DNA of 64,000 nucleotides from an uncultured Gammaproteobacteria bacterium (GTDB lineage Bacteria > Patescibacteriota > Patescibacteriia > UBA2591 > UBA6264). Positions within the stretch are counted from its first letter, which is position 1, and each line of letters opens with the position of its first letter. Below are positions 18,603 through 64,000 of the stretch, one piece after another. The position numbers and the translations under genes are program-made. The notes below the pieces were generated by a model, which saw only the letters and a list, made by a program, of their open reading frames with translations, was not told the origin of the DNA and ran no database searches. The stretch spans positions 3,066 to 67,065 of the forward strand of contig CAZOLB010000001.1 of the NCBI GenBank assembly GCA_964580825.1, read 5' to 3'.

Positions 18603-20099
18603 TTACTCTTGCTTATCTTTAAATGACTTTAAGCATTGCCGACAATAAACGGGCCTGATTCCATCGGGAATAAAGGGAACATAAATTTCTAGGCCGCATT
18701 TATCGCACTTCGACTTATATTTATTTGTTTCAATTTCCCTAATCTCTCCTTGCTTTTTCCCCTCCTTCCTCTTCTCTTTGGAGATCCCGAGCCAACGGCC
18801 TATTTTCTGCTCAACCAACCCCTGCGGTTCTGTATAACGTTCTCGCGAAATTTTTATTATCTTATCTTTATTTTCTTCCGGCTTCAGAGAAGACTCCGAT
18901 ATTCTGGCAAAAATAGGGTCGGAAATAGCGCCATTAACCGCCATTTTAACAAACAATTCATATCTCTTTAAATTAGCCAATTTATTTTTATTGAAACGTC
19001 GGCGCGCAACTTCCTTAGACAAAGATAAAGCGTCTTCGGCGTTCACTTTATAAGCGAGAATCGTTCCAATGTTATTAAAAATTGCATCTTTAATTCTCAA
19101 ATTCCGCTTTGTTTCGCTCAATTGCCCAAGATACTGATGCGCCAGGATTAAATTTACATAATGTTTATTTTCTTGAGAAATCATCTCTTTAAAAGAATCG
19201 GTAATCAGATCGGAGAACTCATCAATATATAAATAAAAATCGCGACGTTGATTTTCGGAAACACTAAGCCGCTCTATGGCAATCATCTGAATTTTTGTCA
19301 CCAACATCGCCCCGAAAAATGCGGCTATTTCTTCCCCAACTATCGCTTTTGACAAATTTACTATTAAAATTTTCTCTTTATTGATAACTTCATCGATGTC
19401 AACTTTCGAGCTAACTTGTCCGGCAATATTTCTCACTAAAGGAATAGAGAAAAAAGCGCCAATTTTCTCTTGTATGGGGATTATAACTTCAGTTCGTAAA
19501 CGCTCATCATATCGCGGATATTCCTTCTCCCAAAACGCTTTTACTCCCTCGTCGCTTACTCTCTCTACCACCTTCCGCCTATATTCTTCGTCGAGCAACA
19601 TTCTTTTAACACCTAAAAGTGTTGGGGACTGATATTCCAATAAAGCTAAAATAATATTGCGCAACACATGGATCACACGAGGATTAGGCAATTCACTTTT
19701 AATTTTCTCCAAAGCCGCAACAAGATTCGAAACAACCAAAAAATGCTGATAATTTCCCCCGACTCCCTTTAAAATATTAAAAGAAAAAGGATTTTTTACG
19801 TCCGCAAGATTAAGATAAATCGTATCATTAACGCGAGAAGAAGGAATAAAATCCACTACCCTTTTAGCCAAACCGCCATAAAAATCAATTAAAGCGACGC
19901 CATGGCCGGATAAAATGTCCTGACAAATCATTTTTTCCATCGTCCTTGACTTGCCGCTTCCCGCTACACCAATCAAATACATATGCCGCCGGCGGTCTTC
20001 CCTTTTAAGGCCCAGTTCGCGCCGAGGACCGTCGCCCTCCGTTTTGGCAAAAAAAACTATATCTTTTACTTCTTCTCCCTCTTTTTCGACTTCTACCAT
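18603..20099 (-). CDS. FtsK/HerA-superfamily P-loop ATPase (type IV coupling-protein/DUF87-like) with C-terminal Cys4 zinc ribbon; paralog 1 of 3
   Basis: Walker A is present (HMYLIGVAGSGKSRTM), as is Walker B (FYLYIDEFSDLI) and a downstream AHQYLGQL motif. The C-terminus is CDKCGLEIYVPFIPDGIRPVYCRQC. It has no TM helix. It is clearly paralogous to the ORFs at 48562 and 50296. The start is moved to the ATG at 20099 to avoid overlap with the upstream gene. Confidence 0.7.
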   Translation of the reverse strand: MVEVEKEGEEVKDIVFFAKTEGDGPRRELGLKREDRRRHMYLIGVAGSGKSRTMEKMICQDILSGHGVALIDFYGGLAKRVVDFIPSSRVNDTIYLNLADVKNPFSFNILKGVGGNYQHFLVVSNLVAALEKIKSELPNPRVIHVLRNIILALLEYQSPTLLGVKRMLLDEEYRRKVVERVSDEGVKAFWEKEYPRYDERLRTEVIIPIQEKIGAFFSIPLVRNIAGQVSSKVDIDEVINKEKILIVNLSKAIVGEEIAAFFGAMLVTKIQMIAIERLSVSENQRRDFYLYIDEFSDLITDSFKEMISQENKHYVNLILAHQYLGQLSETKRNLRIKDAIFNNIGTILAYKVNAEDALSLSKEVARRRFNKNKLANLKRYELFVKMAVNGAISDPIFARISESSLKPEENKDKIIKISRERYTEPQGLVEQKIGRWLGISKEKRKEGKKQGEIREIETNKYKSKCDKCGLEIYVPFIPDGIRPVYCRQCLKSFKDKQE

Positions 20100-20121
20100 A
20101 GTGGTTATTATACCATTTTCT

Positions 20122-21253: not shown

Positions 21254-21709
21254 TTAAGGATTAGAAATTAAATTATCCAACCTGTCGAGATAATCCTGTA
21301 AAATAATTGTTGCGGCGATAGCATGTTCATTTTTATCTTCGCCCGACAATCTCTTTGCTTCCTGGCTGGTCAATCGCTCGTCGAAACCAATAACTGGAAC
21401 ATTTATCTCCCTTTTCAGCGTCTCAATAAATCTGTCAATAACTTTTGTCTGCTCCGTAACCATCCCCGATAAACCTAATGGCCGACCGATAACAATTTTT
21501 TCTATTTTTTCTTTTCCAATGATTTCTTTTAAGGTCTTTAACAAAATAGAATTATTTTTGTTGGTTAAAATTTTGTACGGCATGGCGATTGGCGGACAGC
21601 TATTAAAACCTTTGTTCTCAATCAACGAACCAAAAGCAATGGCCACGCCTACCCATTTTTTTCCATAATCAACAGCTAAAATCATAATAATATTATAACA
21701 AAAGGACAA
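21254..21709 (-). CDS. ruvX: Putative pre-16S rRNA nuclease / Holliday junction resolvase-like YqgF
   Basis: It shows an RNase H-like fold signature (ILAVDYGKKWVGVAIAF… with D at position 4 of the motif, …IGRPLGLSGMVTEQT…). The true start may be the internal Met at about 21685. Confidence 0.8.
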   Translation of the reverse strand: MSFCYNIIMILAVDYGKKWVGVAIAFGSLIENKGFNSCPPIAMPYKILTNKNNSILLKTLKEIIGKEKIEKIVIGRPLGLSGMVTEQTKVIDRFIETLKREINVPVIGFDERLTSQEAKRLSGEDKNEHAIAATIILQDYLDRLDNLISNP

Positions 21710-21754
21710 AAGAACAAAAGAACCTCTGTTTCATATCTATTAATAATAATCGAA

Positions 21755-22008
21755 AAAATAAAAGACCGCTGGCAGTATCGTATCGCAGCGGTCATCTATC
21801 ACGACCCCATCGGGGATTACATACGGGACCAAGGGGAGTTTTCTTCGCCTTTTCTCAAGAGTTACTTGCTTCTTCACTCCTTAGAAACGTTCCCCCCTTT
21901 TAGCGGGTTGAGATCTCTTATGCGAAACCCTCACCCAACCCTCACCCCATGAAAACTCTCTCTTGTCCCGGGACAAGAGCTTTGATTTCATCCCTCGGTC
22001 CCTCTCAC
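21755..22008 (-). ncRNA. Structured small RNA of unassigned class with its own promoter and intrinsic terminator
   Basis: A 370-nt gap in an otherwise compact region. A minus-strand promoter (TTGTTT, 16 nt, TATACT) lies at 22017-22044. The 5' GGGACCGAGGG pairs with 3' CCCUUGGUCCC as a terminal helix, about 170 nt apart. There is an internal perfect hairpin CUCUUGUCC-CG-GGACAAGAG. A terminator (GACCGCUG…CAGCGGUC followed by UUUUAUUUUUU) sits at about 21755-21795. No coding capacity. Confidence 0.45.
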
Positions 22009-22078
22009 TATTTAATAGTATAGCACCTTAAATAAAAAAAACAAGGAGTTACCTGTGGATAATTCTGAAAAAATAACT

Positions 22079-22840
22079 TTAAATTTTTGTTAAAATCTCT
22101 GATCCAGTTTTAGTGACTAATATTGTATGCTCAAAATGGGCGGACAAACTGCCGTCGCTGGTAACAATAGTCCAACCATCGTCCAAAATTTTCACTTTCC
22201 AATCGCCAATATTAACCATTGGCTCGACGGCTAAGACCATTCCCGCTTTTAAAATTGGGCCGGCTCCCTTTTTTCCATAATTTAAAATAGTCGGCTCTTC
22301 ATGAAGTTCTTTACCAATGCCGTGGCCGGAAAGATGGCGAACAACCGAAAACCCCCTTTTTTCCACACAAGACTGGATTGCCTGAGATAAATCGCCTAAA
22401 TAGGCGCCTGGTTTTATTTTTTTTACGGCCAGCGCTAATGATTTTTCGGTCACCTTAATCAATTTTCCAGCTTTTTTTGAAATTTGCCCTATCGGAACAG
22501 TTACTGCCATGTCGGCGTAATAACCTTGGTATTTCAAGCCGCAATCCAAACCAATAATATCGCCGACTTTAAGAATTTGATTCTCTTCAGGAATCGCATG
22601 GACTACCTGATTATTGACCGAAGCGCAGAGAACGGCAGGATAAACTCTTCCCCTATCCTTAAAGCCTTTAAAAGCCGGCTCGGCGCCAGCCTTTAAAATT
22701 AAATCTTCGGCTAGTTGGTCTAAAAAAAAAGTAGAAACGCCTTCTTCTGTCCGCGAAACCACTTCTTTCATCACTCCTGCCAAAAGACGACCGGCTCGAC
22801 GCATTATTTCAATTTCCTTTTCCGTTTTTATGGGAATCAT
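22079..22840 (-). CDS. map: Methionine aminopeptidase, type I
   Basis: 253 aa. The pita-bread fold metal ligands are conserved (…DIIGLDCG…, …HGIGKELHEEP…, …EPM…), with full-length similarity. Confidence 0.9.
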   Translation of the reverse strand: MIPIKTEKEIEIMRRAGRLLAGVMKEVVSRTEEGVSTFFLDQLAEDLILKAGAEPAFKGFKDRGRVYPAVLCASVNNQVVHAIPEENQILKVGDIIGLDCGLKYQGYYADMAVTVPIGQISKKAGKLIKVTEKSLALAVKKIKPGAYLGDLSQAIQSCVEKRGFSVVRHLSGHGIGKELHEEPTILNYGKKGAGPILKAGMVLAVEPMVNIGDWKVKILDDGWTIVTSDGSLSAHFEHTILVTKTGSEILTKI

Positions 22841-43287: not shown

Positions 43288-45375
43288 CTACTCTTTCACT
43301 ATCTCATATACTTTTCTTTGTTTGAATTCTTCTTGTTTGCCCAAATTAAACTGCTGGACCGGACGAAGATAACCGACGATTCTCGAATAAACCTCTGTTT
43401 TTGCTTGGCATTGGGAACAAGTATATTGCTCTCCTTTTAGATATCCGTGTTCCGGGCAAATACTGAAAGTCGGAGTAAAAGTAAAATAAGGCAAGCGGAA
43501 TTTTTCAAATATCTTCTTAATTAATATTCTAACCGTCGCGTTATCACTGACCATTTCCCCTAAAAATGCGTGGAAAACCGTACCCCCGCTATATTTCACT
43601 TGCAAATCATCCTGAGAATCCAAATCCTCAAAAAGTCCCCGACTGGAATCGACCGGAAGTTGGGTGGAGTTGGTATAATACGGTTCATTGTGCCCAGCCG
43701 TGATTATCCGCGGATAAATCTTTTTATCCATTTTTGCCAAACGATAACTCGTGCCTTCCGCCGGCGTCGCTTCTAAATTATAAATATTGCCGGTCTGCTT
43801 TTGGTAAAAAAGCAAACGGCGGCGCATAAAATCTAAAATCTTTAAGGTGAAATTTCTTCCTTTCTCGCAAAGAATATTTTCGCCCATAAAATTCAATAAA
43901 GCTTCATTCATTCCTACCAAACCAATGGTTGAAAAATGATTTGCCCAATAGCGCCCGCGCATCTTTTTTATATTGCGCAAGTAAAACTTAGAGTAAGGAT
44001 AAAGACCCTTCTCAATAAAATTTTCCAACATTTTTCTTTTTATCTCCAAACTCTCTTCGGCTAAATCCATTAAATATTTCAATCTATCCAAAAAATTTCT
44101 CTCATTCTTGGCTAAATAACCGATTCTAGGGAGATTTATAGTCACTACCCCCAAACTGCCGGTTAAAGGAGCGCTGCCAAAAAGACCGCCTCCTCGATGA
44201 TATAATTCCTTGCTATTCAATCTCAGTCGGCAACACATTGAACGGATATCTTCGGGATTCATATCCGAATTAATAAAATTGGCAAAATAATTGGTGCCGT
44301 ATTTCGCCGTAGCCTCCCACATCGGCTCATAAGCCGGGTTGTCCCAATCGAATTTTTTGGTGATATTGATGGTCGGAATAGGAAAAGTAAAAACTCTTTG
44401 TCTGGCGTCGCCGAGAGCCATAACTTCGTAAAAAGCCCGATTAAACATATCCATTTCTTTTTGAAACTCCCCATAAGTTTTTTTCTGGGATTTACCTCCG
44501 ATAATAACCGGCATCTTGGAAAGGGTTGACGGCGGTTTAAGATCAAGAGTGACGTTTTCAAATGGCGTTTGAAAACCAACTCTGGTCGGCACATTGCAAT
44601 TGAATAAAAATTCCTGCATTGCCTGCTTAACTTGCTGATAATTCAGCTTATCGTAATAAATAAACGGCGCCAAATATGTGTCAAATGATGAAAAAGCGAT
44701 AGCGCCAGCCGCTTCTCCCTGAAGGGTATATAAAAAATTAACCACCTGTCCCAGAGCTGTTCGGAAGTGTTTTGCCGGCGTCGACTGTATTTTGCCCGCG
44801 ACCCCGGTAAACCCCTGGGATAGCAAGTCATAAAGATCCCATCCGACGCAATAAGGAGCTAAACTGCCAAGATCGTGAATATGAAAATCTCCTGATTCGG
44901 CCGCCTGCCTAATTTCCGGCGGATAAATTCTGTTCAGCCAGTATTTTTTAGTAACGGCATTGTCGACATAATTATTCAAACCCTGCAGAGAATAAGTCAT
45001 ATTGGCGTTTTCTTTGATTTCCCAATCGCTCTCGGCTAAATATTTTTCAATCATTCCTAATCCGTCTTTCATAACTCGAGCTTCTTCTCTAATTCGACGA
45101 TGCTGGTCGCGATAAATAATATAAGATCGGGCGATATCGGCTAAATCGGACTGAATTAAAACTTCTTCGATAATATCTTGCACTTCTTCCACTTCCGGCA
45201 CCCTGCCTTTGAAACGGCGATTAAGGATTTTTACCACTTTATCGGCTAAATCATCCGCCAAATTGCCATCTTTATCCGAAGAAGCAGTTATGGCTTTAAA
45301 AATGGCCTGGGTAATTTTATTCTTATTGAACTTTACTACCCGGCCATCTCTTTTCGCAATTTTACTTATTCCCAT
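43288..45375 (-). CDS. nrdD: Anaerobic ribonucleoside-triphosphate reductase (class III), with N-terminal ATP-cone
   Basis: ATP-cone (…RDGRVVKFNKNKITQAIFKA…). There is a C-terminal Zn site CPEHG…CSQC and a glycyl-radical motif RIVGYLRP. Confidence 0.9.
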   Translation of the reverse strand: MGISKIAKRDGRVVKFNKNKITQAIFKAITASSDKDGNLADDLADKVVKILNRRFKGRVPEVEEVQDIIEEVLIQSDLADIARSYIIYRDQHRRIREEARVMKDGLGMIEKYLAESDWEIKENANMTYSLQGLNNYVDNAVTKKYWLNRIYPPEIRQAAESGDFHIHDLGSLAPYCVGWDLYDLLSQGFTGVAGKIQSTPAKHFRTALGQVVNFLYTLQGEAAGAIAFSSFDTYLAPFIYYDKLNYQQVKQAMQEFLFNCNVPTRVGFQTPFENVTLDLKPPSTLSKMPVIIGGKSQKKTYGEFQKEMDMFNRAFYEVMALGDARQRVFTFPIPTINITKKFDWDNPAYEPMWEATAKYGTNYFANFINSDMNPEDIRSMCCRLRLNSKELYHRGGGLFGSAPLTGSLGVVTINLPRIGYLAKNERNFLDRLKYLMDLAEESLEIKRKMLENFIEKGLYPYSKFYLRNIKKMRGRYWANHFSTIGLVGMNEALLNFMGENILCEKGRNFTLKILDFMRRRLLFYQKQTGNIYNLEATPAEGTSYRLAKMDKKIYPRIITAGHNEPYYTNSTQLPVDSSRGLFEDLDSQDDLQVKYSGGTVFHAFLGEMVSDNATVRILIKKIFEKFRLPYFTFTPTFSICPEHGYLKGEQYTCSQCQAKTEVYSRIVGYLRPVQQFNLGKQEEFKQRKVYEIVKE

Positions 45376-61329: not shown

Positions 61330-61466
61330 AATTCTAGTATAATATTATTATCCGAACGCTACAAATAATAATATAAATCCATATCATTATTATATTATTA
61401 CATCAATCATTATATTATAAACTTACAAATCCTGTCAATCTCCGTTTAAAAATCCCTTTTTAAAAG

Positions 61467-61495
61467 TTTGGGAACTTAGTTCCCAAACTTTCTTA
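61467..61495 (-). terminator. Rho-independent terminator after the EndoQ-like gene
   Basis: AAAGTTTGGGAAC-TTA-GTTCCCAAACTTT gives a 13-bp perfect stem. It is followed on the minus strand by UUUUAAAAAG. Confidence 0.5.
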
Positions 61496-61501
61496 TTGGA
61501 A

Positions 61502-63044: not shown

Positions 63045-63299
63045 TATTGCACTTAAATCGGCGATAAGACGAATAAAAAACAGAAATAAAATTCGAAAAT
63101 CAAAATATTATATGCCTATTTTTACTAATCCTAATTTTCAATCCTTCTCATTTCAATATAATCCGCTTAGGGACTAAAACCCTAAATTGCGGCATTGTGA
63201 GTTAAATGGTGAATTAGAAATTTGACCTATTAGGACTTCTCGGCTAAATTTGTTGCCAAACTTACACCTAAAGCCTATATACCCGGTAATCTTCCGGGG

Positions 63300-64000
<701 letters not shown>

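Follow-up and report, generated by a model that had tools for sequence, protein, structure and literature searches.

An orphan candidate for a structured small RNA gene at the map-ruvX junction of a Patescibacteria genome

Described bacterial RNAs and the map-ruvX junction

The described systems closest to the element presented here are 6S RNA (SsrS, RF00013), bacterial SRP RNA in its 4.5S and long forms (RF00169, RF01854), the generic small RNA genes equipped with a sigma-70 promoter and a Rho-independent terminator, and the small RNAs that derive from the 3' ends of operons. GC islands in AT-rich genomes are, besides, a classic predictor of structural RNA genes, an approach reportedly taken by Klein, Misulovin and Eddy in 2002. 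For the Patescibacteria (CPR) neither a 6S RNA nor any other small RNA has been described in the searchable literature.

We have analysed a 64-kb stretch of DNA, called the window throughout, whose host belongs to the Patescibacteria: its methionine aminopeptidase is 66-73% identical to homologues in Patescibacteria MAGs, and the identity to Wildermuthbacteria is about 58%. On the minus strand the genes follow each other in the order rpsE - rplO - secY - adk - map - gap - ruvX - family-4 glycosyltransferase gene - gene of a ~500-aa protein, where map is the final gene of the rpsE-rplO-secY-adk-map block. The original prediction had placed an independently transcribed structured RNA, 6S-like or SRP-like, into a 370-nt non-coding gap between map and ruvX. 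Both neighbours were named correctly, as the Pfam families Peptidase_M24 and RuvX confirm. The gap (21710-22078) is 369 nt long, and with the true ruvX ATG at 21686, from which the N-terminus of RuvX aligns with its homologues, it is effectively 392 nt. Its non-coding character is supported, the one annotated reading frame (ORF1) having no relatives and atypical codons.

Our preferred reading, to which we assign a probability of about 0.5, is that a stand-alone gene, an orphan restricted to this species, occupies the gap and encodes a structured non-coding RNA of about 250 nt; it would have been inserted at a variable junction and would also supply the 3' end of the upstream operon. This reading would imply that the promoter and the terminator described below are functional, that the RNA accumulates and that its structure determines its action, for instance through protein binding. 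Within the broad kind of bacterial small RNA genes the element is best regarded, from its sequence features, as an unclassified candidate.

With 6S RNA the element shares a core of ~180 nt whose ends are sealed in a helix, its reading as a stand-alone RNA and a likely mode of action that would depend on structure and not on antisense pairing. It differs from 6S RNA by the lack of a covariance-model match, by a three-way junction in place of a rod, by the lack of conservation in relatives, and by a 3' extension of ~70 nt which carries its own terminator. As in bacterial SRP RNA the ends pair, and the element adjoins an operon containing secY; unlike SRP RNA it has no domain IV hairpin and no model match, and it is not conserved. 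It resembles generic small RNAs in being intergenic and lineage-restricted and in having its own predicted promoter and terminator, and judged from its sequence it possesses what characterizes a stand-alone small RNA gene in general (an own promoter and a Rho-independent terminator in an intergenic position). As in small RNAs derived from operon 3' ends, its sequence coincides in part with the 3' end of the transcript from the upstream operon. Compared with typical base-pairing small RNAs it is larger and far more structured, and it is purine-rich with its anti-Shine-Dalgarno-like segments sequestered. Finally, it has the signature of a GC island, 0.51 in a genome of 0.38, coincident with a stable and strand-specific fold, a signature which is a heuristic of detection and does not define a family.

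Transcription signals and predicted fold

The minus-strand promoter recognized in the original prediction (TTGTTT, 16 nt, TATACT) is present. Its T-rich spacer ends in TG-C (22025-22023), which had been overlooked and which makes it an extended -10 promoter (TGcTATACT). The region upstream is T-rich as well, and the -35 hexamer is weak (3/6). Transcription of the RNA would start at ~22010. The promoter shares 20 of 22 nt with the promoter which in a relative (L003) lies directly 3' of map and drives a leaderless ORF.

Two extended -10 sites were returned by the scan on the minus strand of the gap. The gene ruvX has an extended -10 promoter of its own, 6 nt before its ATG (21686-21684), and its mRNA is accordingly predicted to be leaderless. 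Perfect TGnTATAAT sites occur at 21697 and 20112, 6-7 nt before the ATGs of real genes, which indicates that the extended -10 type is in use in this genome; the same layout, TGGTATAAT followed by 7 nt and an ATG, precedes the next-but-one gene at 20099. Together with the match in L003, the sites ahead of ruvX and of the gene at 20099 suggest a promoter type that the lineage possesses natively and uses for leaderless mRNAs. The promoter of the RNA (22025-22017) has the same architecture as that of ruvX but no start codon at the position of the start site, so its transcript would begin with an untranslated 5' end.

An intrinsic terminator with an 8-bp GC-rich stem and a U-run closes the unit, as had been predicted. 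The stem contains 6 G-C and 2 A-U pairs, the hairpin energy is -13 kcal/mol and the pair probability 0.95. Its loop of 10-14 nt is unusually long and exceeds the 8-nt limit of the scanner, for which reason the consensus terminator scan missed the hairpin at 21793-21764. The same scan detected no terminator-like site between the map stop codon (22079) and 22044, and the terminator at 21793-21751 is the sole one between the map stop codon and ruvX, whereas relatives such as L003 and L151 have a simple terminator directly 3' of map. Since map lacks a terminator of its own, read-through from the ribosomal-protein/secY/adk/map operon must also end at 21793-21751.

A promoter, a junction fold of ~180 nt, a terminator and a gene on the same strand form a typical riboswitch layout, and it might be supposed that the element is a cis-acting leader, riboswitch- or attenuator-like, which governs read-through into ruvX and the glycosyltransferase gene, with the junction as sensor and the terminator as expression platform. 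The 5' strand of P1 (GGGACCG) could indeed pair alternatively with the 3' arm of the terminator (CGGUCUU); however, this candidate anti-terminator would bridge about 230 nt with 7 bp, two of which are G.U, and would have to compete with the local hairpin of -13 kcal/mol. Moreover, ruvX has its own leaderless-type extended -10 promoter and no Shine-Dalgarno sequence to serve a read-through transcript, relatives express ruvX directly after map without any leader, and no riboswitch or leader family matched the region even at E <= 10. A leader function is therefore considered improbable.

The features of the locus are collected in the table below. The long-range terminal helix of the original prediction is reproduced as P1, in which GGGACCGAGGG (22002-21992) pairs with CCCUUGGUCCC (21835-21825) through 10 Watson-Crick pairs and one G.U; the spacing had been estimated at about 170 nt, and it is 156 nt between the arms. 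In the window the 11-mer arm was found at just these two places. The perfect internal hairpin was likewise recovered as P2, a perfect 20-nt palindrome (CUCUUGUCCCGGGACAAGAG), with the correction that its realistic form is an 8-bp stem with a CCGG loop, not a CG loop. The linker J1/2 holds the AUG of ORF1. The 3' strand of P3 directly abuts that of P1, and the two helices can thus stack coaxially; in the MFE as well as in the centroid fold they meet with P2 in a three-way junction. Pairing in the interior is uncertain, with probabilities of 0.3-0.8. The G-rich repeat is one of only two G4-type motifs on both strands of the window, and it has the shorter loops of the two. Purines prevail in the RNA as a whole, and helices sequester those pyrimidine-rich segments that resemble an anti-Shine-Dalgarno sequence.

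Table. Annotated and predicted features of the map-ruvX junction, in the direction of minus-strand transcription (positions in the window)
Feature	Position	Strand	Basis
map, type I methionine aminopeptidase	22079..22840	-	Pfam Peptidase_M24; gene order
Predicted RNA promoter: -35-like TTGTTT (22044-22039), 16-nt spacer, -10 TATACT (22022-22017)	22017..22044	-	sequence; extended -10 scan
P1 5' strand GGGACCGAGGG, 11-bp terminal helix	21992..22002	-	pair probability 1.00
J1/2, 12-nt single-stranded linker AUGAAAUCAAAG	21980..21991	-	unpaired probability about 0.7-1.0
Putative ORF1, 36 aa (MKSKLLSRDKREFSWGEGWVRVSHKRSQPAKRGERF)	21881..21991	-	called by metagenome pipelines in L081-L085
P2 palindromic hairpin CUCUUGUC-CCGG-GACAAGAG	21960..21979	-	pair probability 0.97; blastn self-match
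P3 5' strand GAGUUUUC, partner GAAAACUC (21843-21836)	21951..21958	-	pair probability 0.88
G-rich tandem repeat, GGGUGAGGGUU twice; GGGG-UGA-GGG-UU-GGG-UGA-GGG	21928..21948	-	G-quadruplex-type motif scan
P4 arm GGGUUUC/GAGAUCU, less certain, overlaps the G-rich repeat	21930-21924 / 21917-21911	-	pair probability 0.72
P5 arm UUCU-AGGAGU ... ACUCUU-AGAA, 13-nt purine-rich loop	21852..21886	-	pair probability about 0.8
3' strands of P3 (21843-21836) and P1 (21835-21825): GAAAACUC-CCCUUGGUCCC	21825..21843	-	folding
Small hairpin CCCC-GAU-GGGG between core and terminator, uncertain	21805..21815	-	pair probability 0.46
Predicted intrinsic terminator: stem GACCGCUG/CAGCGGUC (21793-21786 / 21771-21764), then UUUUAUUUUUU	21751..21793	-	folding; sequence
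Predicted own extended -10 promoter of ruvX, TGTTATAAT (21700-21692)	21686..21700	-	extended -10 scan; sequence
ruvX (YqgF-family)	21254..21686	-	Pfam RuvX; gene order; family-4 glycosyltransferase gene next

The MFE of the 178-nt core is -64.9 kcal/mol against -50.5 +/- 3.8 kcal/mol for dinucleotide shuffles (z = -3.79), and only 1 of 200 shuffles folds equally well. When 710 segments of 180 nt from both strands of the window were scanned at coarse settings as a background, the minus-strand core reached z = -5.2, a value matched by only two of them (top 0.3%), and the plus strand of the same DNA gave z = -1.1. This asymmetry arises from G.U pairs and points to structure at the level of the RNA and not to a palindrome in the DNA; the favoured strand is the one on which the promoter and the terminator also lie. 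The GC content of the core, 0.51 against 0.38 for the window, belongs to the top 1.6% of segments and is the highest among those gaps of the window that hold no tRNA or rRNA. Some coding segments of the window exceed it.

The features named in the original prediction are all present at the stated coordinates and exceed chance expectation. The in silico data, that is the promoter, the strand-specific fold, the GC island, the terminator and the separate promoter of ruvX, thus lend support to the originally proposed independently transcribed structured unit. In the mechanism that we envisage, transcription would begin at ~22010 from the extended -10 promoter TGcTATACT, and after a short leader the first 178 nt would fold into a compact domain. 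In this domain the 11-bp P1 would stack on the 8-bp P3, with the 8-bp hairpin P2 branching off to give the three-way junction, and the interior would be occupied by two weaker arms and the G-rich tandem repeat. The intrinsic terminator at 21793-21751 would end transcription. The element would at the same time constitute the 3' end of the ribosomal-protein/secY/adk/map operon and insulate this operon from ruvX, which would restart from its own leaderless promoter. The whole unit would have been inserted at this junction, whose content differs from one relative to another.

Known RNA classes and the open reading frame ORF1

When the whole window was scanned with Rfam 15 at gathering thresholds, nothing was found in the gap. 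At E <= 10 with permissive filters, the isolated 481-nt region gave no match to 6S, SRP, RNase P, tmRNA or riboswitch families; the hits in the gap were chance-level ones to snoRNA, frnS and PreQ1, the last on the opposite strand with E = 1. Even at this threshold neither the RNaseP_bact_a/b models, which cover CR-I to CR-V, nor the Bacteria_small_SRP and Bacteria_large_SRP models matched, and ARAGORN reported 0 tRNA or tmRNA genes in 21500-22300. The SRP domain IV hairpin, with its GNRA/GGAA tetraloop and conserved symmetric and asymmetric loops, is not among the predicted hairpins, which are the perfect 8-bp stem of the CCGG hairpin and two further stems, one G.U-rich with a loop of 6 nt and the other with a loop of 13 nt. 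The features of tmRNA, RNase P and SRP domain IV that the original prediction had been unable to find were not detected here either.

The assignment to a 6S-like or SRP-like class could not be maintained. Besides the missing Rfam matches, the best unbranched rod closed by P1 has a predicted energy of -52.3 kcal/mol; this lies 12.6 kcal/mol above the MFE and at the mean of the shuffles. The largest loops of this forced rod are a 7x8-nt loop and a one-sided bulge of 18 nt, and there is no large two-sided central bubble. Given a branched fold and a rod that is costly and without a bubble, the supposed 6S architecture reduces to the pairing of the ends. It may still be asked whether the element is a highly divergent form of a universal RNA, 6S or less likely SRP, which the Rfam models fail to recognize in CPR bacteria. 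The paired 5' and 3' ends of the ~180-nt core are in favour of this, as is the absence of any described 6S RNA from the Patescibacteria literature that can be searched; 6S RNAs are poorly conserved in sequence, which counts in the same direction. Against it stand the searches at E <= 10 and with ARAGORN, the branched fold with its shuffle-level rod and the lack of a hairpin like SRP domain IV. A housekeeping RNA, furthermore, is expected to be conserved, whereas the closest relatives are empty at this locus and a covariance model of the core found nothing in about 70 CPR loci. We conclude that the element is neither a 6S or SRP RNA nor a tmRNA or RNase P RNA, and a divergent descendant of 6S or SRP RNA is highly improbable.

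Two other candidates were considered and rejected. A CsrA sponge is not indicated by the 5 GGA motifs of the core, a hand count to be set against about 6 expected from base composition, and for a DGR template no related repeat is present in the window.

The transcript could also be the mRNA of ORF1 (21991-21881), a basic peptide of 36 amino acids, with the GAGG about 9 nt before the AUG as ribosome-binding site. Gene callers annotated it in all five assemblies of the organism, the AUG is preceded by a GAGG-type motif, and frame 0 outscores frames 1 and 2. The peptide has no relative among 1.84 billion cluster representatives, where it found only itself, and it is the sole member of its 90% cluster; neither Pfam nor PHROGs gave a match. 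Its GC3 is 0.56 compared with 0.37 +/- 0.035 in real genes, and by codon score it ranks within the lowest 6% of segments from real genes. P1 (probability 1.0) contains the putative ribosome-binding site, the AUG directly abuts this helix, and the frame spans just 108 nt of a structured transcript of ~250 nt. ORF1 is probably spurious as a gene, and we hold it very unlikely that the transcript serves as its mRNA.

Related genomes and significance of the element

In the gap, the five independent assemblies of this organism (L081-L085) show 100% identity, which excludes an assembly artefact and at the same time offers no variation for covariation. No map protein in the protein collections lies between 73% and 100% identity, so that they offered no closer relative. 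For the nearest map homologues, about 10 in number, the syntenic loci lack the element, and the junction is variable. Here map and ruvX are directly adjacent (L001, L090, L150), separated by 81 nt (L148), by a PF02594-like and a CTP_transf_like gene (L086, L088), or by genes for a 137-aa protein and an AAA_14/DUF4143 ATPase (L089), or else other genes stand 3' of map (L002-L004, L151). Longer gaps after map occur in more distant loci; they are AT-rich and unrelated to the element.

When the element was compared by blastn and nhmmer with 90 related loci, nothing was retrieved except the 22-nt promoter match to L003. A single-sequence covariance model built from the core (R1) recovered in the window, with filters off, no sequence but its own, and gave no significant hit on the about 70 CPR loci. 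The search for protein families on all stop-free stretches in six frames (Pfam and PHROGs) gave no match, and the possibility of a decayed remnant of the genes that are inserted in relatives was rejected, tblastx and blastn having detected nothing. As no homologue was found in these searches, there is neither covariation support nor a sign of purifying selection. The original prediction had named missing conservation in related genomes as the observation that would speak against it, and the element is in fact found in none of the closest relatives. For a housekeeping RNA such as 6S or SRP this excludes the locus; with a lineage-specific RNA the absence from relatives is compatible.

The variability of the junction calls for the consideration of a neutral or recently acquired insert at an indel hot spot, which by chance would have supplied a terminator and a promoter and whose fold would have no function. 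Such an origin would agree with the differing content of the junction among relatives, where map and ruvX are adjacent, 81 nt apart or separated by other genes, with the singleton status of an element for which no homologue was found, and with a GC content (0.51 in a 0.38 genome) that could mark foreign DNA. What it does not account for is a fold that depends on G.U pairs and is specific for one strand (z -5.2 against -1.1), the same strand that carries the promoter and the terminator. Neither blastn against phage and plasmid sequences nor the viral comparison revealed a similarity; the pattern scans of viral contigs for the P1 pair, the G-rich tandem and the palindrome produced a single 21-nt low-complexity coincidence (L146). 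Moreover, no protein remnant is present in any frame, and the promoter looks like one of the lineage's own and not like a foreign one. A functionless insert is in our judgement rather unlikely.

A mobile origin in the strict sense, with the strands of P1 as the terminal inverted repeats of a MITE, is hardly credible. The 10/11 inverted repeat does flank a 156-nt non-coding core that is absent from relatives, an arrangement which is equally explained by an RNA helix. However, the 64-kb window contains no second copy of the element, no target-site duplication flanks the repeats, and the fold, being asymmetric between the strands, argues for structure in the RNA and not in the DNA. A scan of metagenomes for the pair of P1 arms returned 55 loci, all unrelated; the organism's own JGI contigs were not among them, and this negative is therefore a weak one. 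These loci were mostly inverted arrays of GGGAnnnA octamers between convergent genes on soil and peat contigs with 60-65% GC, and one (L097) is a long palindrome at the end of a contig.

Returning to the stand-alone RNA gene, which we prefer, its most likely mode of action, as far as we can infer it, is that of a protein-binding or otherwise structure-dependent RNA and not of an antisense regulator, since the terminal helix seals its ends, purines predominate, and the anti-Shine-Dalgarno-like segments lie buried. A more specific proposal, which we put forward as a speculation of low probability, is that a three-way-junction RNA with a short-loop G-quadruplex motif was invented in this lineage and has two sources, its own promoter and the ribosomal-protein/secY operon, of which it would form the 3' tail. 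It might bind a protein and titrate it in the manner of 6S or CsrB, to which it would be unrelated, and might thereby link the output of the ribosome operon to another process.

Almost nothing is known about the regulatory RNAs of the Patescibacteria/CPR. The present analysis corrects the view of this locus in two respects: the element is not a 6S or SRP RNA, and the 36-aa protein annotated by the pipelines is probably spurious. As an orphan of a single species, the element has its value as a lead for metatranscriptomics and not as a discovery. Should it prove real and abundant, this structured RNA, located where the main ribosomal-protein operon ends, would rank among the first candidates of its kind in the CPR.

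The map-ruvX junction and the short ORF

Among close relatives, gene-content variation has a hot spot at the map-ruvX junction. The two genes are directly adjacent in three of the relatives compared (L001, L090, L150) and stand 81 nt apart in a fourth (L148), a PF02594-like gene and a nucleotidyltransferase are inserted in L086 and L088, and L089 carries a 137-aa unknown protein together with an AAA_14/DUF4143 ATPase. Inside the structured element occupying this gap in the window a 36-aa protein, ORF1, has been annotated by automated pipelines (ENA, JGI, Logan, NCBI) in the independent assemblies of the same organism (L081-L085). The protein is an orphan, its codon usage is atypical, and the gene call is probably false.

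Inverted repeats returned by the terminal-helix query

The metagenome scan for the 11-mer arm pair of P1, the terminal helix of the element, returned 55 loci (L091-L145), most of which carry inverted arrays of 8-nt units on soil and peat contigs of 60-65% GC; four examples are tabulated below. One side of an array holds 2-9 copies of GGGAMYRA (GGGACCAA, GGGAACAA, GGGACCGA, GGGACTAA and similar units), the opposite side holds their complements (TTGTTCCC, TTGGTCCC), and the core of about 100 nt between them varies from locus to locus. The arrays usually lie between convergent genes and look like REP-like bidirectional terminator hairpins. As kin of the window element they were rejected as unrelated, the 11-mer used as query being all that the two have in common.

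In L097, at the extreme end of a 39% GC contig where no ORF above 125 aa was found, two arms of about 100 bp form a near-perfect inverted repeat with a fold energy of -140 kcal/mol; a eukaryotic origin or an artefact of assembly is the probable explanation.

Other folding segments and the 23S rRNA

Five further 180-nt segments of the window gave folding z-scores of -4 to -5.5 against shuffles in the coarse scan, and none of them had a match in Rfam. Since its z-score is low on both strands, the segment at 45181-45360 is suggested to be a palindrome at the DNA level.

In the Rfam alignment of the 3' part of the 23S rRNA, one region was shortened (223 nt vs 352 model positions) and 81 nt were inserted at a place that takes up 5 nt in the model. 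Departures of this sort in an rRNA are consistent with current knowledge of CPR bacteria.

Coordinates of the features discussed (window positions unless a locus is named)
Feature	Location	Strand	Remark
Extended -10	21686-21700	minus	ruvX ATG follows
Extended -10	20099-20120	minus	ATG of ~498-aa gene follows
Extended -10	L003 4816-4848		ATG of an L003 gene follows
ORF1	21881-21991	minus	
Octamer array	L093 4521-4713		
Octamer array	L117 1800-1984		
Octamer array	L126 2030-2238		
Octamer array	L111 3364-3569		
Inverted repeat	L097 1-228		
Low-z segment	2161-2340	plus	overlaps AT-rich intergenic gap 2137-2299
Low-z segment	11161-11340	plus	
Low-z segment	36181-36360	minus	
Low-z segment	45181-45360	both	
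Low-z segment	61381-61560	both	overlaps AT-rich intergenic gap 61330-61501
23S rRNA 3' part	63209-64000	minus	

Extended -10 promoters and translation starts

Perfect extended -10 elements (TGnTATAAT) precede the ATG of ruvX, of the gene of about 498 aa and of a gene in the relative L003, and in all three the distance to the ATG is exactly 6-7 nt, the implication being that the lineage of the window commonly makes leaderless mRNAs.
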